Assembly (NCBI GenBank): GCA_044892525.1
Contig: CM097887.1
Location: 115,546,397-115,610,396, forward strand
Origin: Schmidtea polychroa
Lineage: Eukaryota
Length of the DNA: 64,000 nucleotides
Direction: 5' to 3'
The position numbers and the translations under genes were made by a program. Positions 28,738-63,347 of this stretch are shown here, piece after piece. The notes beneath the pieces are model-generated. The model was not told the DNA's origin. It saw only the letters and a program-made list of their open reading frames with translations, and ran no database searches. Every line of letters starts with the position of its first letter. Within the stretch, counting starts at the first letter, position 1.

Positions 28738-30660
28738 GCGTTACCCCCAGTATAGAAATGTGTTAAGTAGCCATTGTAATTTCTCAGTTCTCATAATTAA
28801 CCACGACAATAATCCTTATACATGGAGTCTGTTCATCGATTTCATGTTCTTTCTGATCTATTACTTGGAATCACGATCAGAAAAAACATAAAGATCAGTC
28901 TTGTGAGAGTCAATTATAAATCTCATCAAAATAGATAAACTATCAGTAATTTTAATCTCAGTCACATGTCTTATATGTAGAATCTATTCATTATATGTTT
29001 ATACGAGATGTTAAAACAAAGATAAAAATCTATAACAAAACTTAATTTTATCCTAATCCATATCAAAAACTAAAAATTTGTAGCATGTTAGTTATTATAT
29101 TTTGTGCGTACATAGACATTGTTAGAACACCCCTCCTCCTCGATGCTTACATAACATATGGATGGTCCCAGATAGATTTTATAAGCACTACTATGAAACT
29201 CACTCCTCGCCACTGGATCATGGAAACATAACAAATATTTGAACGGGCACTTAGATATTTTAATGTTAAAAATCGATTACTTGATTTCTATGAAGATTTA
29301 AATGAAACTGCACAAAACATTGAACAAATTGTTGATATTTTGATCAAATGCAAATTAAATATTTCCCATTAATCTACATATTCAGCTGATAACACAAATG
29401 TGGATTTCGGTAAATTCCGTTCAGTATTTAAACTTCTGGCTAAAGAAAATCAAACCGTATTGAAACATTCCACTGCTTTCAGTGACACTTTAAATTGAAA
29501 AATATTTAATTATCTTCTCAAATCCTTAATATTTTGATGGGTTTCAAATTTATTATCCTTAATACGCTAATTAACTTTCTATTAAAATAGATAAAAATTT
29601 GAAATTAGCTAAACGAGTGAAAAAGGATTCTCAATTTGCATGATATTAATGATAAATAAAATGTTTTAAAAAATTGCATATCTATTGAAATTGATTGATA
29701 TTAAAAATATAATTTTTACTAAAATGATGCAAAGTTTGACTTTTCAATAATAAAATTTGGCAAATATTACAAGTAACTATACTTGAGGACTTTTTAAAAT
29801 TGTTCGGAAATCTATTGTCAATTATTTTGCTTGCTAAATTTTTTTAAATGGTAAATTACTATATTATTATAATAGATGATACTAACAGGATTTTTGTGGG
29901 GATCTCGCTTTAACTGACAAGGATGCCCATGGATTTCCTAAATATTAATAAATTCAGAAATCTTTTATAAAGTTGCTCTATCGTGACAAATTATACTTTA
30001 ATAAATTTTTAAATAGAAATATTCAATATTCTAACCGTCACTTTCCTCACATTCCATTGTTAAACAACAATTAAGATTTTCTTTGCAATAAATTTATAAT
30101 TTCATGTTTACTTTTAATATTTTATGATAATTAAAATAAGAAACAGATGATAATCTAATTATTTGCAGCTTCAACAATTTTATACATATAATTAAAACAA
30201 ATGAACTTGTCTTTTTTAATAAATTTTTCAAGTTCAAATGAAATTAGATTATTTGATGGATATGAAATACGTTTTATTGTATAATTTATTAGTTTAATAA
30301 AAAGCATTTTCTTTTTAAATAATTGACTTAAAATTTATTGTTCACGTTTCATCTATTTTTACTTTTTAAGATCGAATTTATTCAAAATGCAAATACCTTT
30401 TTCAGGTGTGATTTGAAAAAGTTATTTGTAAAAATAAATGTCGAAAGTTTGTGTTACATATTGTAGGTGTCTTTGTCATTCTTCTACAATATGGCTATGT
30501 CAACAGTCGTCCTTGATCTTGAAACGCCAAATTATTTTACATTTTCGATCAATGCAACACTTCTCGCTACCTACCACCTGTTTGAAAATGTTTATAGGGG
30601 TACTCATGGATTTTGAATCGACTCTTTCCTAAACGTCTTCATAATTATTGTACTTTATAC

Positions 30661-30810
30661 CCTCTGTGTGCCCATGGTGATAACCATGTTGGTGCAGTAT
30701 ACAATGGCTGAAAATCGATGAGCGGGTGAGCTCTACTGCTAAAACTACTCCTCATTGTATTTTCATTTTCGGGTTTTGGACTGACGATAGAAGGTCTTAC
30801 GTCATTGTTC
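30661..30810. ncRNA. Conserved structured element, copy C (probable retroelement 3' terminus)
   Basis: TGTGTGC-C-CATGGT-GATA-ACCATG-TTGGTGCA-GTATACA, then GCGGGTGAGCTCTACTGCTAAAACTACTCC and GATAGAAGGTCTTAC, homologous to copies at 45861 and 58281. Confidence 0.7.
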
Positions 30811-30826: not shown

Positions 30827-31140
30827 TTAGATTATTGTCATGTATTCATTTAATTGGGCTCCTCGTTTCTGGAGGTTTTTCAATGTTATCTTCGGAAATT
30901 TTGCGCTTCCCTTAGTTTCTTGTTCATAAATGTCATTTTCCTTCCGATCGTTGGGTTTAGTAGTATATTCTAAAATAACTATTCCTTGAATCCTGGTGTC
31001 AGTGACGAACTCGTCAGAGGCCCTCCGAATTAAATCCAATCAACTGATGTTGAAGACTTATTGACATCCAACACGATACAAATTCTTGAGGTATCTGTAT
31101 GCCGTGAACGTACTCATATCTCGTGATACTGTTAAATAAA
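30827..31140 (-). pseudogene. Decayed ORF end upstream of structured copy C, possibly the C-terminal tail of a non-LTR retrotransposon ORF
   Basis: Stop-interrupted frame AYRYLKNL...LDLIRRASDEF...; resemblance to LINE C-termini is from memory only. Confidence 0.3.
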
Positions 31141-43350: not shown

Positions 43351-45860
43351 AGTATTTGAAACAGATGACTCTTAAAAAATAGGGAACTATCACTGAGAAA
43401 AGTGAGGCGAAGCTATTGTGTCAAATTAGATAATGGGAAAGCAGAATTGATAACGTGATGGTTAAAATAATTTTTCTAACAGAATTTAAGTAAATGACGT
43501 AAATATGTAATATATTACATCACATTAGCTAAAGGTCAAATGTGAATGTATGTAAGTTGAATATATTGCTTTATAAGTTATAATTATTTTAGATACTCTT
43601 CGGCTAGATTAATATTGCTTGTAGCAAATATTATTGGTTAATACATGTTCTACTTTAACCCATGATACTCCAAAACGTGCCTACTTCTAGAATTCTCATT
43701 TCCAAAATATTAACTTACCTGTATTGTATTTACTACTATCAAATGCTTTTGTTTTTTCAGAGAAAATACTCAATTTTAGCCATGATGTACTCGAGTTAAT
43801 GGACACATCTAAAATAAAGTCACCAATTACCTTAGGTAAAAGTAATACAGGTTAGTCCAGTCCGTTTACAATGCAAAATATCAGCTTTTACTAGCCTCTA
43901 TTACTACTTTCTTCAAAAATGTAAACCATCCAATCAGTGTTCAGCTTTTATAGAATTGCAATTTTTACAATAAAATAATCAATTTCTTTTAATTAATTAA
44001 ATAAACTGTAATCAGTTAAATAATTTTTTAGAAAATCTGTATAATTAGAACTTATTGATTTTGAGTCCTATAACAATAAAGAAAACAATCGAAAATAATC
44101 AATTAATCAGTGATAATTAATAAATGCAAATTAACGTAATATATTTGTAATAGTCAAAAAATTTGTTCAGTGTAGGAAGTTTACCTATCCTTGGTAAACT
44201 ATTTCTTTTCTAAAACATTAAATGTCAACTAAATGTCAATGTAAATTGAATTTGTTAAATAAATATATTTATAATCATATTTAAAATATTCAGAAATGTA
44301 ATTGCTCGTATAAAATGTATTAAAAATAAGGTTTGGGCAATATTTTATCCTTCTCGCGATTTCCATCCTATCATAGTTACAAGTGACCCCGTTGAAAATA
44401 TGAATTCATTTTGAACGCATATGCAAAATTTTATTACGCTACATGAAAGTTTTCGAGAGAAACTTTCAACTTTAATGTATAGAATTTAAAGTAATTATTC
44501 CATTAAAATAAGAAAATCATAAATAAATTTGCATTTAATGTAAAATAAAAGATAATTATAATATTAGAATTATAAAGGTACAAAACTTTTGTAAATCAAA
44601 TATTTAATAACTTACTGAATAAAGTTATTGTCATTTTGTCCACTAAATTTCATATACATACGAAAACTTGTAGCGACAATTAAAAATGTTAATCCTGCAT
44701 AAGCCAAAACTGAAATTACTGAAAAGCATATTAAACTGATTTCTAAAGTCATACAGGATAACAAAATTGCTGCAGTTTTCAAAGGACTTCGCCAGAGTAT
44801 TATGTCTAGAACTTAAAATTTTACATTTATATTAATTCTAGATTAAATAAATAAAACAAAATTTTAACTTGAAATCAAAACCAACAAACCAAGGTAATAT
44901 TAAGCATTAGTATTAACAAATTTAATAAGTATTTATTGTAAATTTAAAATATTGATTTACTAGGATGATTAAAAATTTCAATCTGGTTTCCAAAATATTT
45001 TCTATCTATATAAATAATGAGATAATTAATTGTTCACTATTGTTAAAATTAAAAAAATTAACGAATTTCATATTAAAATTAATAGAAAAAATTATAGCTA
45101 CTTTTAAAATCTTGAGTCTCGTTTTCAACTGCTGATTGCTCTGTATCAGAAACTGACATTGTAAAATTGAACTTGTTCGATTAAAAAAAATAAGACCAAA
45201 GATTTTAGCAAAATGTAAGTATAATACAAAATTTAATTGCCACAGTAAAACAAATTGAGTTCAGGTTATTGTTTTTTATGAAAATAATAAAATTTGATAA
45301 GCAATAAAAGAATTCTAAAAATTCGGGATTAGAGTTTTGAGCAATATAAAAAGATAAAACGTGATATTAACTTTAAGGTCAATTTGGAATTATTTGAAAT
45401 CTATTTGGATAAAGGTGGCATTTTTTAATAAATAAATATTATAATTTAGTCTACGACTATAGAAACCATTGATTTATAGTGTTCAGATTGAAGCTGCTGA
45501 TTTATTTTTGGTAATATGGTAATATGAATACTAAATCTTGATTCAATGAAAACTTTACTAGACCTAAACTAGAACAATTTCAAGTGAAATCTATGTGGTG
45601 CATCCAAAAAGTATTTAAACTCGTCAAGAAATAATTTTGTTTTATAAAAATGGTAGTTATACTTAAATATGTAATGATAATGAAAAGTGTTTTAGTTTTT
45701 TACATTATCTTTCTTTGGAAAAGAAATTGTGCTATTTTTGAGAGGAATCGGAGTTAATGGAGCTCATAAATGTGTTGGTTACCTAGAAGGAAGAATTACA
45801 CCATCCCATATGCTCAGGCAAAAATGATCTAGATAACCTTCATGAGTTGACAATTATATC

Positions 45861-46004
45861 CCCTTGCGTATACCCGTGGCGATGTAACACGTTGGTATTG
45901 TATACGAAGGTCGGAGTCTACCAGCAGGTGAGCTCCTATGGTAAAACTACTCCCGGTAGAACTCGCGGTGTGGATTCCAGAGTGCCGTAGAAGGGCTTAC
46001 CTCG
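45861..46004. ncRNA. Conserved structured element, copy A
   Basis: CGTATAC-C-CGTG-(9 nt)-CACG-TTGGTATT-GTATACG; GCAGGTGAGCTCCTATGGTAAAACTACTCC; TAGAAGGGCTTAC. Confidence 0.75.
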
Positions 46005-46454
46005 CTTCTTTCTCTTTAAACCGGCGTCCTGGTCTAAGGGACGTCTCTCCAAAATAGAACCTACTCTATTTGAACGTTTCGCTCAATTTTTACCATAAAA
46101 TTCAGAAAACTAAATATAACGCAAGAATTTCTTTCTCAATACATTTAATTGTGCTATACAACACATACAACAATCATAACAGGTGTTTCCCTCTACAGAT
46201 TAACGGATAGGATGTCTTTGTACACTTTCTCCGGGATGCGAACGAAATTGAATATGTTGCTACATGTCGCCCTCGGCTAACAGGGGGACAATATCTAACT
46301 GTAGCCGGGAATCGCTTCGAATATTGGCTGTTTCGGTAGAAACTATCCGGAAATCATTTATCGGAATAGTTACGGTGGTCGTTGAGACTTTCTCTTTAGA
46401 AGATTGAGCAGCAAATAGGTATGCCCCAAGGGCAGCGATAGTATCGCATCGCTT

Positions 46455-47018
46455 TTAATTCATCTCAGCCTGTGAAGGACGTTTTCGTTTCTTGGTATAT
46501 GAGATAGAATGATCCGCATTAGGAATCGGTAGCAACGCACGAACAGTTTCTGCATGTGTCAAAGATATACTATTGGTCTTGTACGACCCGGATAGAATTG
46601 GGTCTACGAGCGGTGGAAAGTTACTCCCATGTCCGCTACAACTAGATTTTTTCGCTTGAGATTCTCCTTCCTGATGATGAACGGGGAACACATTGGTCCC
46701 ATCTTTTATAGGGTATTCCCGGACTCTTCGTTGTATTTCTTCTTCCGAATTCACCTTGTGTAGAGCCTCAGACTGGGCTTTGATTGTCAGCCGTTGACAT
46801 CGGCTTTCTTCTAGGAGACTGTCTCGACAGTGCTCCAGCCGCAGTATTTTTGTCCTCTCTTCTTTTATTTGTGGTGGGGAGAACCACGTACACTCATAAT
46901 ATTCGATTCGTTTTTTCAGAGCCCCTTTGTATTCTTGGAGTTTCTTAATATCTGTGTTTTTATCTGAGCAGGAAAAACATGGTCGAAGATCTTTAGACGG
47001 CCGACTTGGTTCACTCAT
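46455..47018 (-). CDS. Orphan coiled-coil protein with TWFSP motif (187 aa from the first ATG); frame stays open 65 codons past the TAA, to 46260
   Basis: ATG at 47018, 1 nt after a candidate 39-nt intron (47058-47020); heptad-rich segment; C-terminal KKRKRP; homologous to ORF 58609-59079. Confidence 0.65.
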   Translation of the reverse strand: MSEPSRPSKDLRPCFSCSDKNTDIKKLQEYKGALKKRIEYYECTWFSPPQIKEERTKILRLEHCRDSLLEESRCQRLTIKAQSEALHKVNSEEEIQRRVREYPIKDGTNVFPVHHQEGESQAKKSSCSGHGSNFPPLVDPILSGSYKTNSISLTHAETVRALLPIPNADHSISYTKKRKRPSQAEMN

Positions 47019-48869
47019 TCTAAAAGGGAATTCGTTATAAGAGATTTGATCGACATACCACAACACAATTAACTATTAACAAATTCGATTTAGTGCCCAC
47101 GCGCATTTCTCCATTTTCTACATTACCATATCCCTTACACCATTCGTCGACACATTTCCATTGTACCATAATTTATGCGGGTGAAGATTTGATCAATGTG
47201 TATATTTAAACATTTTCCCACCGTCGATTCCTATATTTGAAAAATATAATTAAAGGGAAATCTAAATTTAAGTTGCCGCAATAGAATGTTTAATTTAATT
47301 TTTTATGTAAGATTCAACATAAAACAAAATTAAATCAAATTTAATTTGAAAAATCCTGGATCTTTAATTAAAAATTTATCCGATGTACGGTAAATAAGAA
47401 TGTCGATTGCTCGTAATTTGTGTACTTTCCCGTATCGATCGCATGATCGTCGTTATGTCATTTGATTCAGATTCATCAACCGAATTTTTCGGCTTAATCG
47501 AGATAATATCGTTTTACTGCAGATTTTGCCTGACAGCGTTTAATGTCAATATTTACGTTAACTTGTATGTCTTTAAAGAAACCGATGGACGTTTCAACTG
47601 AAGTCAGTAAATCAGTGTATCACTGGATTTTGTTTATCTCATTCAATATCTATGCCTGTGAAAAATCAATCACTGTCATACACCTAATGAGCGGAGGTTT
47701 GTCAAGATCAAAATCAATCATCATCGATAATGGATAAATATTTTTCTTAATGAATTCATGATTGCAGAGATTTTATCGCAGCTCATAGTATAGTTCGGAT
47801 TTTCTATGACGTCGAATATGAATTTCTCACTGGAATTAAGCCTAGTCAGCTACTGGAAGATATTCAGATGATATAGTCCTTGGAATTATAGATCTCGACT
47901 ACTGGATACTTATTGGTTCGAAGGAAAGATGACAGAAAATTCTCCACGTACCGGTGCATGCTGAGTCTCAGAAACTTTGTCGCAAATGAAATTTTCTTCG
48001 AGTTCTTACTGAAGTATGGATGTTATAGCACGGAAAATACTGGAATTAAGTCAGCATTACGATCCTCCTGGTTTATTGAACAAACTAACGGTTTACTGCC
48101 ACTCGATGTGAACACTGGAATTTAGCAATTTGTTTCGTTTTCCTGACTTTATTATTGGCTCCTCCACCTGCCAGAACCCACCTAAACACCACCGGTATTG
48201 CTACCGACCGTCTCTAGATCGTGCTGACCGACAGATTTACCGCACTCAAATTTATCAAATCAATAAAAGAAAAGAAAATTTGTTTATGAAATATAAATGC
48301 TGTGGATTACTTTATTTAATCAAAAATGAATAAAATAAATTTTACCCGGCGACCATGTCCTTTGGAATCCGAGTACGAGGTCCTAGTATTGAACCGTTCA
48401 GTGGTGGTTTTCCAAGTATACCTCATAAACATTCTAAACCTGACACTCGTATTTTCTCATCATATCCATCTGAAGTCACTAATAAGTCGAAATCCATACT
48501 GTGGATAGGAAATTTTGCAAAATTATGTAGTTCCTCATACTCGGGGTTCCCAGACGGCATCGTCGCCGGTTCCATGAAGGCAAAGCATGATTCCGTATTG
48601 AAGAATTCATAATTTTATTATAGCATATATACAATATTACTCATTATTATTGGTGCATAAAATGTAAAAAGAAAATCAAACCAATACTTTTCGGTGGTTA
48701 ATAGCTGGATAGCTGAATGGATTTATCAAATCTCTTTTCCCTAATAGTTCGATAAGTAATCGACGTATAATCTCCAATAGTCCCTTAATCGATGTCGTTA
48801 ATAGATAATTCATGAATTCTCGTTGATTGCTCTGTTGTCGTTGGCTTACTCCGCGTTGTTAGGTTTCCC

Positions 48870-49283
48870 TGTAGATTAGATTTTTTGAAGTAGTTGCTTA
48901 ACTGACTTAACGGCCGCTTTATATATTAAATTTTAACCAATCAAAATTAAGTTGGGTTGTTTTTTGGTTATTTTCTATATTTCTTTATTTTTTATTGTTT
49001 TTCTTAGCTATTGTTTTGTTTTATTTTGTTATTTTATTTGTCTTATTATATTTTTACTTAATTACGCGTATTTCTGTTGACTTTTGGTTATATGGCGGCC
49101 TATTTTTAGTTTTCTTTCTGTTTTTACTTAATATTTCATGTTTTATTTAAGTTTCTTATTTTTACTATTTTTACTAAATCTATTTATTGCTCTATTCAAT
49201 TATTTTATTTACTTTTTCTTTCCTACTTCTCCATTCAGCCCACAACTATTAACCGCTCACAATTATTCCGGTTCAGCCCAACA
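48870..49283 (-). repeat. LTR-like A-rich repeat starting TGTTGGGCTGAAC
   Basis: TG start and a possible CA end; start resembles TGTTGGGCTAGAAC of the 56.2/63.0 kb repeats; no TSD found. Confidence 0.35.
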
Positions 49284-49719
49284 AATGGATCAGTAGATTG
49301 GAAACAGACATAGACCTTCTTACGCATGTTTTTGAGAACCAAATGTGCACCACAGATCAGAAGTTCCGAAAGCGAATCTCATATTTTGCTGACACATTTC
49401 AAATTCTACCTAGCAACGGGTTTACGTGATGAGAAATAGTGGTAATGGAGGTTGTGATGGGACCTTAAGTAGATCACTCCATTCATCAAAACACCAGAAA
49501 CACTTCATTCATTTCGAGTGTGGTTTCATTGATAGTGTTTGATGAGAGTTGTGACTGTTGTTAGTTGAGCAGTAAGTATTATTTTAGTACTAATAAATGC
49601 TACTAACTATGAAGACTAAACCAAATCAACAACTACAATTCCATCAAACTATCACAACATCACGCGAATTTTAAGCAAGATTACCGAAAATTAATTCAAT
49701 CAGAATATTTTCTTTTTAT

Positions 49720-49770
49720 TGATTAAAACGTTTCATGTATAATACTAGATCATTATCTTCAGTTTGCGCA
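49720..49770 (-). ncRNA. Degenerate hammerhead ribozyme at the 3' end of a Penelope-like remnant
   Basis: Minus strand CTGAAGA-TAATGATCTAGTATTATACAT-GAAACGTTT, with palindromic AACGTT stem III; stems I and II are poor. Confidence 0.45.
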
Positions 49771-49799
49771 AATATTCTAGTATTTATACATCGAAAATT

Positions 49800-50800
49800 T
49801 ATTTTCAAAAACCAAGTTGATCTATCAATTAAAATTTTAAGTTAAATAACAAGATGATTTTAGCATCCTTAAGAAGTCAACGCTCAATGTCAAAATTTCC
49901 ATTAATAGTGCATTTAGTAATTTTTAATTATATAATTATTAACTCTTCAAGTGTTTTAATAAATTACCTAATATTTTAATGTAAACTTAAATATTTATGA
50001 TTTGGCTATAATATATAATTTTTCGTGTAACAATATTTAATTAATAATTTTAATCTATATTATCAGTTATTTAGGTATTTCATTTTCATACCAGATTTCA
50101 TGAATGTTGTATACATAGATCGAATATTATCATCATTGTCTTTGTGTAAGGTTTGCTTAGAACGAAAAAATAAATCTCCATCAGAAAAACTTTTGTTAAA
50201 GTCTCAAGGGTATTTTCATATATTCGTTAAATTATTATTTTATTTTAGATCAGTTTTAAATGATTTTAATTGTGTTTTAGCTTTAAACGGAGATTCTATT
50301 TTTGATGCAGTAATAATACGAATTTTTTGAAAATATTTTATTTAGTGTTAGGATATAAAATTAAAGAGACCTAATCATACTTTGTATAAAGCGTCTATTA
50401 AAGAAGAATTTGGTGATATTTATAAGCTCCAACAAGTTATATTTTATCCATAAATTCAAATTAATAAATAGTTTACGATTTAGATTCAAGATTGTTTAAA
50501 TTTGATAACAAATGCATTTAATATGGTTAATACAGAAAAAGTATATGGAAATATAGATCTGATGTCTTCTAATTATAAAGTACTAGTAATTATTTGTTTA
50601 AATATATGTCATTTCAATAACTAATTACATTTCTTGAATTTTGTAAATCTGGATTATAAACTATAAAAGTCTTTTCGTTATCACTAGCCATGTCCTGATG
50701 AAGTCGTATAATTTCTGGTGTTTGTTTCTTAATTCCAGTTTTCAAGGTTTCCTGACATAACTTGGAATGGTCAATCAAATATCGTTATTGAATTTATGGT
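49800..50800 (-). pseudogene. Penelope-like element GIY-YIG endonuclease remnants (apparently two in tandem)
   Basis: Decayed YIHHKFN...SYVRKP*KLELRNKHQ and LTILNAFVIKFKQ..LNRK (~50800-50470); KFRIITASKI...FK and TKCTINGNFDIER (~50330-49880). Confidence 0.45.
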
Positions 50801-51539
50801 GTATATATTGATATGAATAAAGGTTTTGGCTACTTACCGTTTCAATAAAACTTCTTCCGTAATTTAGTCTTGTCGAACATGGTTGACATCAAATCTCAAA
50901 TACCTTCCAGTATAATTAAATCTTGCTCCAATATTACCGTAGGTGTTACACCTTCTGCCGGTAGGTTCAACGCCATTCAATGTATTTGACAAAATTTTAA
51001 TAGGATTATCAATAGTTGAGATTGAACATTTGTTGTTTAATCATCGGTTATTAAATGCGTCATTGATCCCATGCGCCGGTGCTTCCAACCTTATTGGCTA
51101 ATTTTTCGCCGATTTTCATGTCTCTACGATTATTTTTTTTTCTTTTTCTAGTTACTTACTATTTATGATCAACTGAAGGTTTATATCGAAAAATGTTACT
51201 TGCAAATCTCAAATATATTTTGGTAAATAAAAAATGATCATGTGAACATATCATTCAATTACTTATCAACAATATTTATACTTGTACAAATAATCGCAGC
51301 TAACATGTCATGTATAGCTATAATGAAGGATTAAAGGATTAGAGATTCACATGACAGATGAAATAGAAATTCAAAATCATTTCAAATATAAACATTTTTA
51401 TTTATTCCATTAATGCTTATTACCTAGCACTCTTTATTGTCAATTGGCCAATTGTATTGTCACAATTTATTTCCTAGCTCTTTCCTGTTCTCTTGATAGC
51501 ACATCGAGTCCGTTAAATATTTTTGTTGCATACTTTCTG

Positions 51540-51660
51540 TTAACCCTTTCGCGGACACGTCGGCATAGACCGACACTACGAATTGCTTAAATTGAGACAC
51601 GTCGGCATATGTCGACACATAAAAATATCGTACATTAACACGTCGTATATAGCCGTCGGC
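51540..51660 (+). mobile_element. piggyBac-like left terminus
   Basis: TTAA followed by CCCTTTCGCGGAC, with subterminal repeats ACACGTCGGCATA x2; no matching right end found. Confidence 0.55.
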
Positions 51661-51876
51661 GATTGCATTGGTTTTATATGTAAGAGCATATTTTGTGCCC
51701 TTACAGAAGCTATCAGATTTGAGATAGTGACCCAATTAGATTGTTTTTTGTATTCTTATGTTTATCCATAATCCGAATTTAAATATCTGCATTAAAAATC
51801 AAATAATCACTTGTGTCACTTTGCGAACATTTTCTAAATTTCAAGGATTAAATTATTTTAATAAAGTAATTTCTTA

Positions 51877-52346
51877 ATGCTACATATACATTCCCAAAAT
51901 GCCACTATAGAATCCTCTTCCTAATGCTACTTATGCATTCCCATAATGCCACTATAGAATCCTTATGCTTATGCTACTTATCCATTATCAGAATTCCACT
52001 ATAGAATCCTTATCCTAATGCTACTTATCCATTATCAGAATTCCACTATAGAATCCTTATCCTAATGCTACTTATGCATTCCCATAATGCCACTATAGAA
52101 TCCTTATCCTAATGCTACTTATGCATTCCCATAATGCCACTATAGAATCCTTATGCTTATGCTACTTATCCATTATCAGAATTCCACTATAGAATCCTTA
52201 TCCTAATGCTACTTATCCATTATCAGAATTCCACTATAGAATCCTTATCCTAATGCTACTTATGCATTCCCATAATGCCACTATAGAATCCTTATCCTAA
52301 TGCTACTTATCCATTATCAGAATTCCACTATAGAATCATTATCAAT
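51877..52346. repeat. 47-bp minisatellite, 10 units, two variants in a higher-order arrangement
   Basis: Units start every 47 nt (51877, 51924, 51971 ... 52300); variant A ATGCATTCCCATAATGCC, variant B ATCCATTATCAGAATTCC. Confidence 0.97.
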
Positions 52347-53664
52347 CAATTTCTTAAATTGAGCATAATTATCGACAATGCCAACTCTTTCAAAAATCAA
52401 AATTTCTCAAAATCTTTGATTTTAAACGCCGACCCTTGTTTCTTTATAAATTGGCTTTTGCCATAATATCATCAATTTCCTTGGCATTATACATCCAATA
52501 TGGTTTGCAGCTCGATTACCCGGGAATTCAAAATTCTAATTTAAAATAATTATTATTGGTTATAGGGATTATGGGAAATTTTGGTAATATTATTTTTTTA
52601 GTTTTCGTAAAATGAATAAAAGAAAATCTAAAGCATGGAATCATTTTCTAAAATATAGAAAAGAATTAAGCTAATTGCTATGATTGTGGAGCAATATAGT
52701 GGTTCAATTAACCATTAAAAACTCCACAGTACGTTTATTTGTCATCAATCAATACTATTATTATTTTTATCGATCTATATATTATTGCAATTATAATATA
52801 AATAGTCAAATAATTTCCCTTCCGATAATATTTACGATTTGCAATCAATCTTCTCTCTAAGCTGTGCGCGTGTACATAACAATTTAGGGTGCATACAAAA
52901 AAAAATTAGGGGAAAGTATTTATTTTTTTAATTAAGTTATATCACATTTTAGAGTAAGTCCATAAATTAGAATTATGTAGAAATATCATTAATTTTAAAT
53001 AGAGTATAAGAGAGTTACAGAAAGATTGTAAATTTGATAAACTGCAACACTTGCATATATCTCTCATTATAGGTTAACAGATAGCACTGGGCCTATCATG
53101 TGTTTTCACTTCTTAAACATAAGATAAGATTGCCAGTAACATTAAATTATTTGTCTGTATTCCACAGACATCCGGTTAATAATAAAAAACCGTTATCCTG
53201 TTTCTTGCCTTGTCGTTTGCAATAAAATTTAATGATAAATGTAAAGGTTTGTAGTTCAAATCCTGATCCGGGACAAGTTAATGAGACATATTATGGATTA
53301 TGTGTAGCGAAACAGCCATGTTCTTCGATGAGATTTCAAAGCCGTTATATAAATTTCCCCATTTGTAACTCGTTATGCATTGCATAGTGCATGCCATTTA
53401 CTTTGGATTGTAAACCAATACATAATTTCTGGCTTATTCACTGCAACACGTGTACAATTTCAAAAGTTTTGCACACACAAAATTAGTAGCACCCAAGGCA
53501 AACGAAAAATTAGAGGGAACATTGCCTTTTATAAAGAAATATCGAATGAATTGCGATATTCAACGCTTTCTTTGGACATTTTAATTCATTTGTTTACTTC
53601 TATAAGAGTCTCACTACTTATTGGGCACATCGCGTATTTGCAACTGTTAAGCTCATATATAGTA

Positions 53665-53686
53665 TTGTTGTTGTTGTTGTTGTTGT
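53665..53686. repeat. (TTG)7 microsatellite, possibly the (CAA)n tail of a minus-strand LINE remnant
   Basis: Perfect trinucleotide run directly downstream of decayed minus-strand ORF 53653-53901. Confidence 0.7.
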
Positions 53687-56222
53687 CTTGATTTAATGAA
53701 TGCCGAATATAAATGGATATAATTGCAGTTTCTGCTTGCACTTTTTGAACATCTTAAAGACGCGAAAGAAGTATTAACAAATCCCCGAAGGAAATCGATA
53801 GAAGAGCATATTACTAATCCAAAACGAGTATTTTTCATGACCAGATTATCTCGATTATAAATTTTTTCTTTAGAAATGTTTTCATCCGCCTGTACCTTCA
53901 AATTTAGCTCTCAGTATTTTCATTCGAGATTCTACATTGATATTTGCCGCATATCTATTGGAAATGAATCAAAATAAACGCTACGAACTTGCTGGAAGAA
54001 TCACAGTAATATTTGGTATTTTTATAAAATTTAAACCGTTTTCAATAGGTCGATTGTGTTATTCCGTGCATCTCGGAAGTCCTTAATCATCTGACTTTTT
54101 CGATTAATACGTGTTTATTTTTGATGCGAAAATGTAAAATAAATTGATTTTGTTCTAGATTTTTTACTATTAATAATAGATATTATGAGAACTTTTTTTC
54201 CAATTTCACCACTGATTATTTTTTCCATTGAATTTTAATAAAATTTTAATAATTTTGCGTTCAAAGTGTCAATGATCAGAGCGTTGTGCATTTTACATTA
54301 ATTCACGTATTTCGCTACGTTCTTCATCGATGTGTGGCATTTTAATAAAATTGAATTTTAATAAATTTATTAAATAGATAGTTATTAAAAAGTAAATTTC
54401 TGTGAAACATCATTTTGAAAATTGAATATTCTATACTCCGTCTGTTTTCTATCAAATATGTAGTATACCATTATATTTAAGTCATACAAATTTCACTTAA
54501 TGTACGATGTTGCCAAAATACTGTTTATGATTTCACTTTACTTTCGCAATTTTTAACCGGAAATTTCCTGCGTTTCTCTGTTTCGTTTTCCTATTATAAA
54601 GGTGGCATCTTGTATTAACTGTAAAATTTAACGGGGATTCGCTCATATTTTCAGGTATTATTTGATGATCGTTATCATTCAAACTAACCGTTAATAATTC
54701 TTGGGTAGGGATCCGCCATTAATTTACTAATCTGTTAACTTCCACAAATCAGTAGTAATTAAAACTAGCTTCCAAATTTTGAGTAGGGCCTGTCGCTGAT
54801 TTTATTAACCCGCTTTCTTATGTTCGTAGTTAAAACTAACTTTCAAAAATTCGAGCGAGAATTGGCTCTGAATTTTATTTATTTGTCCCTATATTCATAG
54901 ATAAAAATTATCTTTCAAAAATTTGGCCAGGGATCTGCTCTTATTTTTACTGGTTAACCCTGATGACCTGACTTTGGTTTGCGCTACGGGCAAAATAGAT
55001 ATTACTGTTTCGTTTCTCATTGTTATTTGTCATAAGTTTAAGTCCATAATAGATTATATGCTTGCTTCCTTGGGCCCACTAGACATTGGGGAAACGAGGT
55101 CTTAGCGTACTATCATAGATAAAATAGTGTATTTTGAATGTTGAGTTTAGATGTGTAGTCTTCATGAGTTATAACATTAGCATAAAACGAAAAATCACTA
55201 CACCCACAAGGGCACCGGACGCTAGTGTGACGAGCTCTCAGTGTTATGTCATAATGTCTTTGGAATCACGACCGAACTAAAAAGCTCGGCGTATTACCCA
55301 ATCTTCTATCTAGTTATCGTTGCTGTTTGGCTTTCCGTGTGTACTGGGCTTACCTATTGCCGACAGCACGGACACGAGCGAGCTTCCCAGTTGTAGATAA
55401 CAGGACGGTAAGGCATTCCTCCCTCCACTGCCAACATTTACACTGACATAAGAAGTTTTCAGATAAACGGCACAGTAAAACTGCTTCCTTGAACTTTATC
55501 ACAATAATCGCTTTCAATAATCTGATTTGGATTCGACCCTAATAGATCTCTTGATTTCTCTTAAATTCTTCGTTTGCCCTACTTACAAAATTTTGATAGA
55601 TTTCCTCAATTTGTATTCTCCATCTCTTCGTCTTTACGTAATTTCGATTTTCTTTATATAATGGTATAATCCAGTTGATTAATAATTCACAGTCTAAATC
55701 GTCCTTTTGCGCCGTATATCAAATTTTCTTGTATTAATTAATTAACGTTTTCCTTTTTTTCTCATTCCTTTGCTTTTCGACCCTGATAACGTATTTGTGT
55801 AAATTCAATATCTCCATCAACCTCATGTCTGTTTTATTCGTGGCAAATTCAAATTTGAAAGTTTATTGATTTTCTGTAATTTCGCATTCTTCGGCATTCG
55901 GTTTTTGACTGTTTCACAATAAATTCCTAGAAATTATGACCTTTTAAGATAATTTTTTTACAACCCTAACACTAAGAATTACATGACTTTACTTTTCTCT
56001 TCGTAAAGATTAACGTGATTATTAGAAATTTATATCAGCAGTAAAAATGTCAGATTTACAATTTTGTTATATTTTTGGAGAATTTAAAATGTTCACGTTT
56101 GGCATATTTTCCATGGACAGTCATTCAACCCATCAAATTGATAGCTAAAAACCTTATAGTACAATACTAAAGTCATTCGTAATGGTTGTATTGCGGAGAA
56201 ATAACAAATAATTTCACCTTTG

Positions 56223-56970
56223 TGTTGGGCTAGAACTGAATTCTAGACTCACATCTAGAAACTGTGACGAAATGTGATGGTACACAACATGCAGATCCAG
56301 CAGTAAGCTTACTCAAATAAAAATAGATAAAAACACCCAGTAAAAAATAATAGAGAGATAACATACCCAAAAATAAAACATCTGAATTAAAACTAAAATG
56401 AAACACGAGCAAGAAGTATCACACGAAAACTGACTCAAATACAACAGAAAAACATAAAACCACAGAAATAAACTTGAATAAAGTTGAATTAGAAAAAAAG
56501 TAGAGAGCAAAATTCAAAAAAAATTTAGAAAATCTAACATAAAGAAAATTCTAGGCGAAAGACCGAGAACGATCAATAAAAATGGCGAAATCCATCATGG
56601 CCGCCAAGCGACACAATAAAGTTTAAGAAAATAAATAATTTAGTTTAAAATATAAAAAAAATCTTTAAAAAAATTCACGAATAACGACTTTAAAATAAGA
56701 ATCAGATTAAAGTTAATATGGAATGTTCTGGAAATGCCCAAATCCATCATGTACGCAAAGTTAAAAAAAAATAATTCAGAAATAAAATTTTAAAAAAAAC
56801 AAAAATTATGGCACCAAAATCGATAAAAATTAAGAATCGAATATTCTAGAATTAAAAAGAATTCTAGTTTGTTTTACTGCATCAATGCACCCACACATAC
56901 TGGCACACCGAAAACCAGGTATATATGGCGCCACATTTCGATTACATGTCACTCTTTATGCCAAAAAAAA
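56223..56970 (+). repeat. ~750-bp A-rich repeat; diverged inverted copy at 62270-62992
   Basis: Shared colinear anchors TGTTGGGCTAGAACTGA.TTCTAGAC, GGTACACAACATGCA, AGCAAGAAGT, ATAAAAATGGCGA, GAATGTTCTGGAA, CAAATCCATCATG, AAAAGAATTC.AGTTTGTTTTA, AGGTATATAT. Confidence 0.85.
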
Positions 56971-58280
56971 ATTTTTCTTTGTTAACGTAATCAGACCTAA
57001 TCGACAGATTAACAGTAAGGCCGATTGATTATTATTTTATGTTATTATATGATGTTCTTATATTTAAATTATAATTTATGATGTCTAGCGAGTTGATGAA
57101 ACGTTTACTTTTTGTTTTTGTATTAAGCTGCAAGAGTGACTGGAATCTTCGTGTCCACATTTTTATGCGCGAGATTCGAGCCAGTCTTGCATCCATCTAA
57201 TAAACTAACATCATCATTGTTGGATCCACAACCCTCAATGACTGCAGGTCCATGACCTGGCATGCACATAAAATGAAATTTCGGATACCAGAGGTCGCCA
57301 CAAACTACATGGTGCAAACTATAGAGTTGTGGGGTAATCTCCCCATGGTAGTTGGCATAGTCGTTACGACTTTGTAGACAAGCAAAATGATGGTAATTAA
57401 AAAGGTCAACTGACTGTCACATAACAATAGGGCCTATCGTACAGAACTCAGTATTGTCGGGAAAATAGGCAAATTTTAACTAATTCGACTCTTTCTAGTA
57501 AATTACATACCTAATATAACACTTAAACTACCTTATTTTACACGACACTAGGTATTGGTAAATGGGGAATTTATCCAGACTCAAAATCTAACAAAACAAG
57601 GTCAAATGTAGTCGATTAATTCAGTTCAATCTATTCAGTTCAATTAAAGAATAGGGCAATCCTTACAAAATTAGAAGTTTCTACCCCTTAATGAAGTCGA
57701 AGCTACTAAATAGCAATAATAGTTAGGTTCTTGTAGCTTAAAAGAAAAATAAAAAATGATTTATCTAAGTTATATTAGCTACCAAAATATATTATCTTAA
57801 ATAAAGTCATATCCAAAGAAATAATCCGAAATCACATTAGATCAGAATAAAGTGCAGAGTAGTTATACCACCCAGGTCATCTTCAATAGCTCCTCACAAC
57901 TTGACGTATCTCATAATTAACTTTTATCATGATTAACTCAACTTATATCAACTTATATTTTTACTTTACATTATTAACTCATATGGTTAACTTGTGTTAG
58001 TATTCGTTTAGACCATCAATATATCACTTATGCTACATCCACCAGCACCCATACCTATCCCTCATAACTTGCGAAAATTAATTTATGTCATATCCAAATT
58101 ATATTATTTAGGCGAAATCTATGCAACTACCACAACCCTCAACTTACATTACATTCAAACTAAAAAAAATAATATCATAAATGTATTATATTATATCACA
58201 TTTAGAAAATTGGTGGGTTACTGGTGGTTGAATGATTGAGTGCTGTTACCAGCGTAACCCAAAATACAACATTGTTTTTC

Positions 58281-58410
58281 CGCTTGGTACCCGTTGAGTG
58301 ATCAACGTTGGTACTGTACCAAGGGTTGAGTACTCGCAAAAAGTGAGCGCATCAACGCACTATAGTTGTCGAGTACTCCGTGGGTTCACGGACTACCGAT
58401 AGAAGGTGTG
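58281..58410. ncRNA. Conserved structured element, copy B
   Basis: CTTGGTAC-C-CGTTGA-GTGA-TCAACG-TTGGTACT-GTACCAAG; GAGTACTCG...CGAGTACTC helix; GATAGAAGG. Confidence 0.75.
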
Positions 58411-58608
58411 TGTCCGATTTCTCAGGTCCCTTTATCAAAATTGTTTTCCCAACCTTATGCACAAACTCTCATTTCCCAGGCAATCATAAACTGTACTAGT
58501 CATTATTTTATCACTACAAAACGTGCAGTATTTTAACAAGGAACATATTATTTGAAGACTACCACAATACATAAAAATACTACAAAACACCTAAAACCGA
58601 ATATAAGT

Positions 58609-59079
58609 TCAAACAGGCTTATTGGTAGGACTGGCCAATTTCGTCGCAGCTGCTAGTGACAAATTTGCTTGTCGCTCGTATTCGGCCAGTCTAGCTTTCT
58701 TCAATTTTTCCCGAATATTTCGGCCTAACCGCTTTCTTTTGGGTTTCTCTTTCGCGGCCGGGGGGTATATTGCTGCTAGTTCCACGGTCAACGGCCGGAT
58801 TTGGCTTATGGCGGCTCCGTGAACTACTTGTTCATTGCGTTCGGTTTTTAACGCGCGGAGCTGGAGTTTCAGTGCCCGGATCTCCATCTGATCCTGCGCA
58901 GCTTGCGTCTGCAGTTGAAGGACCTGCGCCACCTTCTTTTTCATATCCTCGGGACTAAACCAGGTGCTTTCTAGTTCCCGGCACCGTCCCTTGAGCTTGT
59001 CTACTCGTATGCGGAGCTCCTCGGACTGTTTTTGAGCTTCTGCCCTATCTCTTCGCAGATTTTCCAATAGTTTGAACAC
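58609..59079 (-). CDS. Orphan coiled-coil protein with TWFSP motif (exon, or ORF with an upstream in-frame TGA)
   Basis: GC-rich 156-codon frame with strong heptads, LESTWFSP and basic KPKRKR; preceded by acceptor-like TTTATCTAG; 12/29 ungapped identity to ORF 46455-47018. Confidence 0.7.
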   Translation of the reverse strand: MFKLLENLRRDRAEAQKQSEELRIRVDKLKGRCRELESTWFSPEDMKKKVAQVLQLQTQAAQDQMEIRALKLQLRALKTERNEQVVHGAAISQIRPLTVELAAIYPPAAKEKPKRKRLGRNIREKLKKARLAEYERQANLSLAAATKLASPTNKPV

Positions 59080-59288
59080 TAGATAAATTCAACGATTATA
59101 TTCTTGCAGCATACTATTCATTCAATTATAAAATAAAATCAATATTATAAGTAAACATAGTTTCGGATGTTAAGCACGCAATACACAAGATGATTTATTA
59201 AAAGGACTGAAATAATTATCACTAAAATCAAAGTTTAATAAAGTCACAACTGAATGATAATTTGCAAAAACGAAATTTTGACGATGAG

Positions 59289-59654
59289 TCAGTTCAGTCG
59301 CTTGCGAGGCCTTCCCCTCTTCCGCGGGGTTGCCTCGGCCTCTTCTAGGTCCTCCACGGTTTTTCCCTCTTTTTCTGCTTGGATTTGTAGCTCGATCTTC
59401 TTGAGTCGCATCTGAGCTGCTTCTACCTCGATGGCCGCTCGGTCGCGGGCCTCTTGCAAAAAATCGTTTGTGGGCTCTGTTTTTACCCACGCCGGAGCGT
59501 CCGGCTCCGGCCCACTCCTGATTACTGGGCCAAAGTTGTCGAGGTCCAAACCCCGATTCCAATCATGGATACGGTGCCATATGTACCGTGTACGGAGTCT
59601 GGTAAGCATCTGTCGGTCGGCTTCTTCGTGGCTATCGCTGTCAGAGTAGGACAT
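59289..59654 (-). CDS. Orphan 121-aa protein with short coiled coil and C-terminal AT-hook/NLS
   Basis: ATG 2 nt after acceptor ATTTTGTAG; ends TPRKRGRPRKRLN (RGRP AT-hook core); GC-rich. Confidence 0.7.
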   Translation of the reverse strand: MSYSDSDSHEEADRQMLTRLRTRYIWHRIHDWNRGLDLDNFGPVIRSGPEPDAPAWVKTEPTNDFLQEARDRAAIEVEAAQMRLKKIELQIQAEKEGKTVEDLEEAEATPRKRGRPRKRLN

Positions 59655-60594
59655 TTCTACAAAATAATAATCAAGCCCCTCTATACTGATTGAGATACGA
59701 CGTCAACCACAAGATTTTGTTGACCCTTTTTCCCTTTTAAAAAAAAATATTTTATTTTAAGACTAACATCTATAAGCTTAGGAGCAGTGGAATAAAATTT
59801 CCTACTTTATCAAAACAAACACAAAAAAAAAAAATTTCGTCAAAATTCGTTTGTTTAAATCAATCATTTCCATTCAAAATTTTGTTTACCACTGAGTGGT
59901 AATTTTAATTACTATTTATAAATTTTAATTTATATGTTAATAAAATGTGAATTTTTTTTTTTTTAGATCGTCATTTTTAGGCCACTAAATTCGGGCACGC
60001 TGGGGCGACAGGTACTAGCAACGAACTAAGCTCTTCGTCTGCTTACCTTTCCTTCGGTTGTGCTCGTTATGAGTGGTTTGCTCTACATGCAAGTAATTTA
60101 TTTGATTTTTTTTACTTCCTTATTTTTTAGGCGATAACATTAGGAACCTCGATCGAGTAAGGGGAATATATTAGCTTGGAGTAGTCTTCCCATAGTTCTT
60201 CCCAGGGAATGACATTTCATGCCCAATATTTGATTTGGACCCGCAATTTGTCCCTCGCAGAAAATTGGAAATTTTTCGGGAATATTTGTATTCTGTATGT
60301 AGGTAAATCTCTGCGAATTATGGCTTATTTATTCAATTGCATGGTTCGCCGGAGTCATCCTCACCATCTCCTGGAAACTCTTGATTGTCATAGCCCCGTC
60401 TTGAATTTTTCCTTAAGGTTTCTCTGGGGGGGGGTGTTGCTAAATATAGATTTTCAGTTAGGAACGTTTTTATTGGGCAAAAGAATTGACTCCAAATCTA
60501 GATATGGGGAAAAAATCAATAATTGATTTTTTGCTTTCCTAGTAAGTAATACTAATTATGATCATAACCGTAAAAATGGTGATAACGAGGATAA

Positions 60595-60750
60595 CAAATG
60601 ATCGTAGTGGTAATAATAATAATAGTAATAGTCATAATAACAATAATGATAATAATAATAATGAGAACAATAAGGATAGCAATAAGAACAATAATAGCAA
60701 TAATAATAGTAATAATGATAATGGCAACAATAATAATAATAGTGATAATA
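60595..60750. repeat. (AAT/AAC)-rich low-complexity tract
   Basis: Imperfect trinucleotide repeats. Confidence 0.85.
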
Positions 60751-60779
60751 TAACTTTATATTTTACCATTCGTATTTTG

Positions 60780-61460
60780 GCTTTCACAATTTAGGGATTC
60801 ATATTTTATGAGTTCGAGGGTTACATTTTGCACTTTACAGGTTTTCGTCTACGATTTTCAATTTTTTTATCTTACAGTTTATAAATTCATACTTTAGAAG
60901 TTCTCATCATACACTTTATAATTTATAAATTGTTTATTTAACATTTTACCATTTTATATTTTTTACTTCCTAATTTTCTATTTTCAGATTTATAGTTTCA
61001 TGGTCTACCATTTAGAATTTGGATTCTTGATTTATGATTATATGGTTTAAAATTTTTTGTTCAATATTTTACGACGTTATGTTTTCGACTTAATGGTTAT
61101 GATTTATACAATTATAGTCTACTATTTAGAAATTTAGATTTTTACTTTATGATTATATAGTTTTTGCTGACAATTTATATTCAACATTTTACGATCTTAC
61201 ATTTCAGACTTCATCGTTATGATTTGCCCTTTTATGATCTACAGTTTAGATTTTTGATCCATAGTTGTATAGTTTATAACTTATAATACTATATTCGGTA
61301 TTTTAGACTTTATGATTATACTTTACACTTTTAAAGTCTACAATTTAGAAATTTAGGTTTTTGATTTATAGTTGGTAGTTTTATATTCAGTAATTTACGG
61401 TTTTAGGTCTATAATTTATCAATATAATTATCTCCAAGCTATTATAGTTATTTATAAAAG
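60780..61460. repeat. Degenerate T-rich tandem repeat, ~115-120-bp period
   Basis: Recurring TTTAGAA(A)TTT.GATT.TT.A.TTTATGATTATAT.GTTT and TTCAA.ATTTTACGA. Confidence 0.6.
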
Positions 61461-61776
61461 TTATAATCAATTATTTATACCTTTAGGAATATGTTACAGT
61501 GAGAATTTAGATTCGGGATTCTTTTAAATTTATAACTTTTTCCCTTACGTTGGATTCATTAAGTCGGTGATTTATTCACAGGTCTATCCAAATTTAGGCT
61601 CTACTTAGACATAGGCCGAAGAATTTTACCATTTCTATTATTCCAATTACCATGGGCTCCTATTACCAAACCTAATTCGGCATATGTCCAAGTGTACCAA
61701 AATATTATTATTGATCAACCAACTACATTAATGTGCTTGCAGAATTGTGTAAGTTTAGGTATGAGCTCTACTCAAT

Positions 61777-62169
61777 TTAGGACCTTAGTGTGGAGTCGTT
61801 GTTTATGATTTTGAATGTGGATTTTTCATGTGTATTAAACGAAAGTCGGGAAGAATATTGCTTCCATGGCCCCACTGTGACCACTTCTACAAACCTTAGT
61901 GTTGTGTGCTGAGTCAACCATTTACGGTTGACCTTGAATAAATACAAAGAGTCAGGCGGAGGGTTTCCTCGACCTAACTCCATGGCAGGACCATGAAGTA
62001 GTTCGACCTCCGGCTGACCCGAACAAAAAGAAAGCATATAATAAATATCACTATAATAATGATAATGCGTGTCTGCATGTCCTGTTAATAACGATTTTAA
62101 TAAATTGGATGCAGGACTGAACAACGACGCAGGAATACCAGTACGCCGTTGATCACTCATACATCGCAA
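61777..62169 (-). CDS. Hypothetical protein fragment
   Basis: 130-codon, relatively GC-rich frame (GPAMELGRGNPPPDSLYLFKVNRKW); no family recognised. Confidence 0.4.
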   Translation of the reverse strand: MRCMSDQRRTGIPASLFSPASNLLKSLLTGHADTHYHYYSDIYYMLSFCSGQPEVELLHGPAMELGRGNPPPDSLYLFKVNRKWLTQHTTLRFVEVVTVGPWKQYSSRLSFNTHEKSTFKIINNDSTLRS

Positions 62170-62269
62170 AAAATTTTAAGCAAAAATAAATTTAAAATAC
62201 CATCTATATAATTAAACAATTAATATACAAATAAAGATCAATGCTTACTATCGATTTTGGAAATTTCGT

Positions 62270-62585
62270 CACAAAAATTTGGCATAAAAAGTGATTGATT
62301 GTGACTGAAACGTGTCAGTATATATACCTATTTAGTACACGTGTATGTATTGATGCATTAAAACAAACTCGAATTCTTTTTATTCCAGAATTTTCTATTT
62401 TACGATTTTGCTATTTTTAATGGCAATTTTTGTGCCATAATTTTTGTTTTTATTTTTATATTTTTATTTTTTAATTATTTTTCATTAATTTTACGTCCAT
62501 GATGGATTTGGAACGGTTCCAGAACATTCTATTTTACTTTTAATTTAATTTTTATTTTAACTGATGTTTTTATGAATTCTTTTTG

Positions 62586-62619
<34 letters not shown>

Positions 62620-62992
62620 CTAATTTATTTATTTTCCTTAACTTTTGTTGTTCTAGATAACTTTTGTGATGGTCATCGCCATTTTTATAGAATGTTCTGG
62701 GTTTTTCTGGAATGTTTTACTGTTTTTATCGTCTTTTAAGTTATTCGAGTCTGTTTTTTGTAACTCTGTGTTTATTTGGTTATTTTTGAGTTAGATTTTT
62801 GCATCACTTCTTGCTTTTGTATAATTTTGTTTAATTTCTTTGTTTATGTTTTTGTTGCTTTCTCCTTTAGTTAATATTGTTTATTTGATGTAATTTTAAT
62901 ATTTAGCTAAACGTCTTGCTTTTGCATGTTGTGTACCTGCACCTTTCAGTCACAATTCAAGTTTGGGTCTAGAAGTCAGTTCTAGCCCAACA
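62270..62992 (-). repeat. Inverted copy of the 56223-56970 repeat, with an internal poly-T run
   Basis: Same anchors as the 56.2 kb copy, on the opposite strand. Confidence 0.85.
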
Positions 62993-63347
62993 TAAAACAC
63001 TCGGGGGCCCATAAAATTGCGACCCGCAATTTAAATCACAAGATGAAGAAAATTATTTTTCAGAATACTTGCACTATATTACAAGTGCCTACATGCAAAT
63101 TGGGTCTACGAGCTACAGGGTCGTGACCTCAATACCCACATACATAAAAAGGCTACTATTATACTACATTCTACGGATGGGTTGAAAGATGAAGAAAAAG
63201 AACGACCGAGGTCGGTCCACACAAAAATAAAATTATCATGCTCAAGAATCAATGTTATTAGTCACAATCAGTCTCAGTCTTTGAAATCATGATTGTTTGA
63301 TAATGTTTTATAATGTCATGAAATGTTTATACTGTCGTGATGTCACA

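Follow-up and report, generated by a model that had tools for sequence, protein, structure and literature searches.

The stretch of DNA analysed here, referred to as the window, comprises 64,000 nucleotides of Schmidtea polychroa (contig CM097887.1, positions 115,546,397 to 115,610,396); it is animal DNA with 30% G+C, in which remnants of hAT, gypsy-type reverse transcriptase (RT) and DDE sequences are present. Two open reading frames (ORFs) on its minus strand, ORF A (46455..47018) and ORF B (58609..59079), encode coiled-coil proteins that carry the motif TWxxP, and each is followed on the same strand by a structured motif of about 230 bases (copy A, 45771..46003; copy B, 58182..58415). We call each ORF together with its motif unit A and unit B. 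Unit B is repeated many times and stops abruptly just past the motif, and the association of ORF and motif recurs, in decayed form, at a third locus. Small accessory coiled-coil ORFs are known from mobile elements; what is new is the protein family and the terminal fold, both of which are undescribed, were matched in none of the libraries searched, and lie within a repeat that is abundant in the genome.

The TWxxP coiled-coil proteins

The original prediction treated 46260..47058 as one open frame. An in-frame TAA at 46455-46457 interrupts it, and the frame is uninterrupted from 46455 to 47072. As delimited by frame reading, shuffles, an alignment with the relative P0003 and a structure model, ORF A runs from ATG to TAA on the minus strand and encodes 187 aa; its start is most likely the ATG at 47018, because the relative P0004 likewise opens with MSEP. 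Directly before this ATG, a pyrimidine tract and AG (47020..47035, minus strand) look like a splice acceptor. Past the TAA, 64 codons remain open in frame (46260..46454, minus strand), which may be a 3' untranslated region or the tail of a broken longer ORF; they gave no significant alignment to the tails of P0003 and P0004 (read with X). ORF B encodes 156 aa, has no ATG at its start and opens behind an acceptor-like AG at 59080-59079. The distance from the stop to the start of the motif is 452 nt for ORF A and 194 nt for ORF B; both ORFs lie upstream of the same motif on the same strand, as had been proposed.

Judged from their sequences, ORFs A and B are real, distant homologues. The two peptides that first suggested the pairing are indeed found on the minus strand, with 12 of 29 residues identical in an ungapped alignment (E 0.18 by tblastx across the whole window), and the remark that their DNA similarity is not obvious agrees with blastn, which gave no DNA match between the two ORFs. 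The pairwise protein alignment has 17 identical residues in 50 (E 2e-5), and its local score of 67 was reached by none of 5000 plain and none of 5000 heptad-preserving shuffles (maxima 66 and 62). When a profile was built from five outside relatives only, ORF A ranked first (76.6 bits) and ORF B second (14.3 bits) among 3066 tiles of the window, which is independent support for their homology.

The profile of A and B matched six proteins among 1.84 billion, and later searches added P0008 and the cluster member P0007, bringing the outside relatives to eight; ORF B as a lone query gave no relatives among 175 candidates, whereas the profile of both did find relatives. P0001 is 38% identical to ORF B over 151 aa, and P0003 is 33% identical to ORF A over 104 aa. 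The residues T, W, P, L, E and R are unchanged in all nine aligned proteins, and for this reason the family motif is TWxxP, not TWFSP. The suggestion of a coiled coil interrupted by TWFSP therefore survives in part: the break between predicted helices is present, and in the eight outside relatives TWxxP likewise falls between two predicted helices, but the pentapeptide itself is not invariant. In the structure models, whose global confidence is low (pTM 0.35 and 0.34), ORF A forms helices at residues 17-42 and 49-89, interrupted at TWFSP, and ORF B at residues 2-37, 44-104 and 120-149. The basic patch, resembling a nuclear localization signal (NLS), was found in both ORFs as anticipated; across the family it comprises 5-8 basic residues in 12 and lies 65-125 residues downstream of TWxxP in nine of ten proteins, P0005 being left out because its row was mis-anchored. 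A PPxY late motif was considered as a family trait and rejected, given that it is present in only two of the ten proteins.

Searches of Pfam, PHROGs, PDB sequences and the Atlas gave no significant match to the TWxxP proteins, and in a viral fold comparison there was no match at E<=0.001. The fold search returned generic coiled coils only (best Z 6.5), by which kinship is neither shown nor excluded, and no viral locus was found for P0001. The family is accordingly an orphan, as predicted, in that no housekeeping family and no known ORF1 family of transposable elements was matched in Pfam or PDB sequences. The literature covered, which did not extend to supplements or to Repbase, where the family may be held as an unclassified repeat, contains no description of it; the available portions of a planarian genome paper (PMC11410931) and of a retrozyme preprint (10.64898/2026.07.22.740005) make no mention of it.

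In six of the eight outside proteins (P0002-P0006 and P0008) the TWxxP domain is joined to an unrelated host domain, a different one each time: ribosomal L21, CRAL-TRIO, glycine cleavage P, neurotransmitter symporter, subtilase and ABC transporter. Fusion to six unrelated host genes is what is expected for a dispersed repeat, and we infer that these public records are chimeric gene models that took in a repeat ORF; stand-alone copies may simply be missing from such protein sets. In practice the ORF, which public databases carry within six unrelated host gene models, should be masked.

The terminal motif and the extent of unit B

Copy A of the motif, on the minus strand, consists of the hairpins H0, H1 and H2 and a terminal stem, H3, and ends in ACA followed by TTT. 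Copy B lies on the same strand, with its end between 58182 and 58211. A third, decayed copy, C (30589..30803, minus strand), was detected by nhmmer with 28.5 bits (E 4e-8 over 30658-30797); the best score of the motif profile in 40 control sequences was 6.7 bits. Upstream of copy C lies a decayed remnant of a TWxxP ORF, 26 residues long (30953..31030, minus strand), which at about 8.1 bits is the third-ranked locus among the 3066 tiles, the next unrelated locus scoring 6.6 bits; taken alone it is marginal. A possible fourth copy, D (49310..49520, plus strand), is much decayed and scored 13.2 bits over 49405-49515; the covariance model did not recover it, and its pairwise support is weak. An LTR-like insertion (LTR, long terminal repeat; 48651-49283, minus strand) separates copy D from its upstream. 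ORF and motif are thus linked at all three copies whose upstream has not been replaced, among them the one further homologue whose DNA is known, the remnant at copy C. The statement that the family is encoded twice in the window is right for ORFs A and B but does not cover the motif, which has more than two copies, the third with its ORF remnant. A search pattern drawn from copies A and B matches those two places only, which is circular by construction.

The repeat nature of unit B was examined by mapping to 57000-60480 the contigs from four of 19 public runs (X1, X5, X8 and X9, from four studies), of which 5671, 2360, 297 and 42, respectively, fell on this stretch with graded likeness. Summed depth was expressed relative to the flank 57585-58169, which measures contrast and gives no copy number; X1 is possibly the source sample. 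In X1 the depth was 4459-fold over the motif, 856- to 1425-fold over ORF B and 70- to 121-fold beyond 60159; in X5 the corresponding values were 3781-fold, 204- to 423-fold, and 13- to 39-fold beyond 59691. The motif is the most widely shared part of the unit. Single-locus contigs end at 58210 in both X1 and X5, that is, in two studies, from which it follows that the element has its end just past the motif. The contigs that continue at 58420 into related yet dissimilar sequence (agreement 0.50-0.69) number 60, 55, 11 and 3, and several families therefore share the motif. Conservation of the fold across families with proteins about 21% identical suggests a common enzyme or protein partner. By contig depth the repeat covers 58182..60480 (minus strand) as far as tested and extends at least this far; contigs of X8 and X9 bridge 60037-60243 and beyond. 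The ORF-motif units have no poly(A) tail and no AATAAA, and for neither of them was a partner end or a long direct repeat found in the window. Membership of a Polinton was rejected because the flank past the motif is single-locus.

Some further features were observed in and around this repeat. A separate repeated stretch lies at 57117-57584; its connection to the motif region is seen in single contigs, which pass from 57192 to 58432 with opposite strands (X1 and X5) or from 58327 back to 57418 (X1). In X1 and X5 there are also single contigs that lack 63-67 nt across 58317-58385, a gap that would take away the greater part of the long stem H1. At 60426-60439 (plus strand), a run of nine G followed by TGTTG resembles a purine tract with an LTR start, and it lies inside sequence that still repeats with unit B.

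Upstream of ORF B the repeat includes ORF C (59289..59654, minus strand), with 121 aa, an acceptor-like AG before its ATG and a basic C-terminus, RKRGRPRK, which we take to be AT-hook-like; ORF C has no Pfam or Atlas match. Further upstream there is a strong splice-donor-like site (60040..60048, minus strand), with a putative intron start at 60046. The ORFs have 44-56% G+C, and the spacers before the ORFs of unit B, which end in acceptor-like AG, have 25-26%; this layout suggests that the transcript may be spliced into the acceptor-like sites. X8 is possibly an RNA run; we do not use its coverage, or its contig that stops at 59080, as evidence for expression or splicing. Upstream of ORF A, 47100-48650 (minus strand) is decayed coding-like sequence with intron-like gaps and has no Pfam or PDB match when read with X; by eye, 47500-47750 looked like a restriction-like endonuclease (RLE), which was not borne out.

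The predicted fold begins with a small hairpin with a conserved loop, after which come a long stem interrupted by an internal loop, another stem in which two bases bulge out, and the terminal stem. In the three sequences compared, 14 of 33 pairs are changed on both sides, a count reached in none of 500 shuffles, and 86% of cells are paired, against 29-41% when the partners are slid. This covariation is support and not proof, because the structure was drawn from the same three sequences. A putative pseudoknot of 4 bp between the H0 loop and H1 pairs in all three copies with one compensatory change, but loose ends in X8 and X9 show a one-sided letter change. In many copies of unit B the sequence is longer by one base at 58322, and the spacing then equals that of copy A. 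In each of the three copies ACA followed by TTT marks the end, no more than about 45 nt away from the terminal stem (chance about 5% each). On the ORF strand the motif has 12 G-U cells against 3 A-C cells.

No Rfam family matches the motif, and over 44000-61000 there was no Rfam match to E 10 for twister, twister-sister, pistol, hepatitis delta virus (HDV) ribozyme, s2m, selenocysteine insertion sequence (SECIS) or small nucleolar RNA. An HDV-like reading drawn by hand failed on the helix order in copy B, and the motif was rejected as coding sequence because the frame differs between A and B across it. Matches of the DNA pattern elsewhere (47 metagenome loci, 0 and then 1 viral locus, 11 prokaryote loci) proved on inspection to be due to chance, by the covariance model (12 loci) and by the profile.

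The nature of the element

The units very probably belong to a mobile element. The original prediction had offered two roles for the protein, of which that of a cargo protein of a mobile cassette agrees with the many-copy nature of unit B and its end after the motif, with the relatives in six host gene models and with the remnant at the third motif. The other, an ORF1-like nucleic-acid chaperone, finds no support in the position of the ORF, which directly precedes the motif and the end of the element and is followed by no polymerase. Binding or chaperoning of nucleic acids by the TWxxP protein is suggested by the basic patch only.

The reading we favour, which we hold tentatively and rate at somewhat less than an even chance, is that of an element which moves as RNA, is copied in trans starting at the folded end and has the TWxxP protein for its RNA-binding partner. 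The units would represent the end module of a many-copy mobile element, composed of one or two small ORFs and then the predicted folded terminal domain of about 230 bases. Transcription would proceed on the ORF strand, with splicing into the acceptor-like sites, and the introns would persist in new copies. The helices of the TWxxP protein would serve for self-association and its basic patch for binding the RNA of the folded end, and this end would be the signal by which an RT encoded elsewhere copies the RNA. Copying would start from the 3' end and the 5' part would frequently be lost, as in Penelope or Terminon units; the plan would be like that of a Terminon or an Athena coiled-coil unit with another fold in place of the hammerhead.

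A Penelope-like plan is the closest because the repeat is one-ended, the fold is kept across distant families, there is no tail and no partner end, and intron-like spacers are kept. According to the literature, Penelope-like elements (PLEs) keep introns, are often 5'-truncated and may carry ORFs with coiled-coil and NLS features (PMC8557442); Terminons have coiled-coil ORFs and a 3'-terminal fold (PMC6431247); and coiled-coil ORFs are common to Terminons and LTR elements, in which the ORF3s are spliced (PMC5408684). The units resemble Terminon and Athena PLEs in their predicted coiled-coil ORF with a basic patch, kept intron-like spacers, predicted 3'-terminal fold and absence of poly(A) (PMC6431247, PMC8557442, PMC5408684), a comparison made by plan and not by ORF sequence; they differ from these in that no hammerhead, reverse-telomeric tail, RT or pseudo-LTR was found. 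Given that the hammerhead and pseudo-LTR tests failed and that no RT is in view, the units are not filed as a PLE.

Several observations weigh against this interpretation. Hammerhead ribozymes are described as universal in PLEs outside Naiad and Chlamys (PMC8557442), and the hammerhead core is absent from all three motif regions on both strands, a lack that Naiads share (PMC8557442). There is no tandem pseudo-LTR in the window, nor an inverted one, given that the inverted copy D is too unlike copy A to belong to the same insertion. No PLE-type RT, with or without GIY-YIG, and no other enzyme was found in 47100-48700, 60050-60531 or 61500-62251 (read with X), though the copies may be truncated. 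The fall in depth away from the motif could reflect divergence between families and not truncation. The count of covarying pairs depends on three sequences and a structure drawn from them, and the fold is not clearly an RNA on the ORF strand: the consensus fold has an energy of -23.0 for the opposite strand and of -18.35 for the ORF strand, single-sequence folds are lower on the opposite strand in all three copies, and copy A taken singly is not folded more stably than its shuffled versions (z -0.97). Finally, 4 of the 10 ORF variants listed are synonymous and none of eight indels within unit B falls in the ORFs (among 12 of 45 rows listed), numbers that show no selection and are too few to read it.

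In the first alternative, unlikely in our estimation, a rolling-circle DNA transposon of the Helentron/Helitron2 type (HLE2) would terminate in the motif; its hairpins would function as single-stranded DNA, and the small ORFs between introns would be cargo or accessory genes transported as DNA. The helices are nearly strand-neutral, and DNA transposition would explain the kept introns and the absent poly(A). The H2 arm of copies A and B carries TACCCGT, a word also present in the subterminal inverted repeat (subTIR) of Drosophila melanogaster DINE-1 (PMC2374699 Table 1), a stem-loop follows this word and the end is T-rich; the right ends of Helitron-like elements are moreover more conserved than the left ones (PMC11417382). 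The general likeness to Helentrons, HINEs and DINE-1 thus comprises the TACCCG word in a hairpin, the stem-loop near a T-rich end, and an end common to several families (PMC4067079, PMC2374699, PMC11417382). The spacing differs, however: the stem is present, but its word lies about 105-112 nt from the end, as compared with 38-60 in HINEs (PMC4067079), and copy C lacks TACCCGT. HLE2 elements have a pair of subTIRs of 12-15 bp, one of them at the 5' end, and their autonomous copies encode the RepHel transposase. The word of copy A has an inverted partner at 49426 (11 of 13 positions), yet this partner sits inside the whole inverted copy D, and upstream of B or C there is no partner within two mismatches, so a clear 5' partner is wanting. 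The conserved loops and bulges span 230 nt, a far larger fold than the 60-nt end described, and no RepHel was seen in the upstream stretches tested.

It is also unlikely that the units represent LTRs, whether solo or 3', or that they belong to the 3' accessory part of an LTR retrotransposon whose accessory ORFs are spliced and which has a response element close to the end of its LTR, comparable to Rex/RxRE or Rec/RcRE. In each copy the final letters are ACA, as in the TGTT..CA units found in other parts of the window; the small downstream ORFs stand behind acceptor-like sites, in the manner of the spliced coiled-coil ORF3s of LTR elements (PMC5408684), and P0006 has, in its Arg-rich patch, a weak match to Pfam REV. 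In contrast to LTR retrotransposons, which have TG...CA ends with target duplications of 4-6 bp, neither a left end to match nor a second LTR end with such a duplication was found, a primer-binding site is absent after the ACA ends and a purine tract before the candidate start at 60139 (the ends being uncertain), and the stretches tested next to A and B contain no gag-pol. In addition, TTT follows ACA in all three copies, though duplicated targets should differ.

The match of P0006 to Pfam REV (19.1 bits, cut-off 22, E 1e-3) is below the cut-off and confined to the Arg-rich patch of one of the eight members. The retroviral proteins Rev, Rex and Rec bind response elements (Rex/RxRE, Rec/RcRE) by an Arg-rich motif and carry a leucine-rich export signal, and the likeness of the TWxxP proteins to them consists of an Arg-rich patch with a structured element nearby. 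It is conceivable, and in our opinion rather improbable, that the units represent a new class of flatworm element, whose end is a new self-cleaving or polymerase-recruiting RNA fold that replaces the hammerhead, and whose Rev-like protein carries unspliced, intron-retaining RNA; if true, this class would offer a testable answer to intron retention in Penelope-type elements. More generally, if the fold self-cleaves or is bound by protein, it would be a new RNA element with a bearing on the movement of intron-bearing retroelements. LINE-1 ORF1p and the hepatitis delta antigen combine long helices with a basic nucleic-acid-binding patch, and the TWxxP proteins share with them the predicted long helices and the basic patch. 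Unlike LINE-1 ORF1, they are followed by the motif and a T-rich end, with no ORF2 downstream and no tail, and have no ORF1 match in Pfam; unlike Deltavirus-like agents, they have no match in Pfam or PDB sequences, there is no HDV ribozyme match to E 10, and rod-like self-complementarity is absent.

That the units form the 3' end of a tyrosine-recombinase (YR) element of the DIRS order or of a NeSL/LIN-type non-LTR element is highly unlikely. Their ends include ATT/TTT, the type of trinucleotide that bounds most DIRS1-like elements (PMC3266345), and LIN elements are known from planarians (PMC4640811); nevertheless, the inverted terminal repeats and internal complementary regions of DIRS1-like elements (85-130 bp in total; PMC3266345) have no counterpart in 44500-48500 or 57000-61000, neither unit has a long inverted or direct repeat or a poly(A) tail, and there is no RT, YR or RLE match in the upstream stretches tested.

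The weakest explanation takes the ORFs for ordinary genes of the host or for look-alikes by chance, and the motif for a separate host RNA gene or short interspersed element (SINE). It can draw on the motif being 3-10 times more widely shared than the ORF region and on the A-B protein match being weak by itself, but is already largely refuted because unit B is a many-copy repeat in public runs, and it is hardly tenable when ORF B is itself repeated hundreds-fold in depth, outside relatives link A and B, an ORF precedes the motif on the same strand at three loci, and there is no tRNA or Rfam head.

Other features of the window

A reticulon-domain exon (44612-44812, minus strand) shares its strand with unit A and follows it at a distance of about 1 kb; unit A may be located in an intron of this reticulon gene, as its relatives appear to lie in or beside host genes. 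Units of LTR-like appearance, TGTTGGG...CA, are found at 56219-56965 (plus strand) and 62278-62996 (minus strand), which are 67% alike, and at 48651-49283, the insertion next to copy D. Just upstream of the unit at 62996, an open frame (63348-63998, minus strand) runs off the window edge and encodes at least 212 aa with a hydrophobic segment; it has no significant Pfam match and is possibly an accessory ORF3. A lone 5.8S rRNA fragment (54229-54336, minus strand; 49.2 bits) is the single rRNA match in the window, and ten copies of a 47-nt tandem unit with 90% matches occupy 51872-52343. Two ORFs encode hAT transposases, one at 5684-6994 (plus strand) and the other at 23055-24905 (minus strand), the latter with 616 aa and open throughout.

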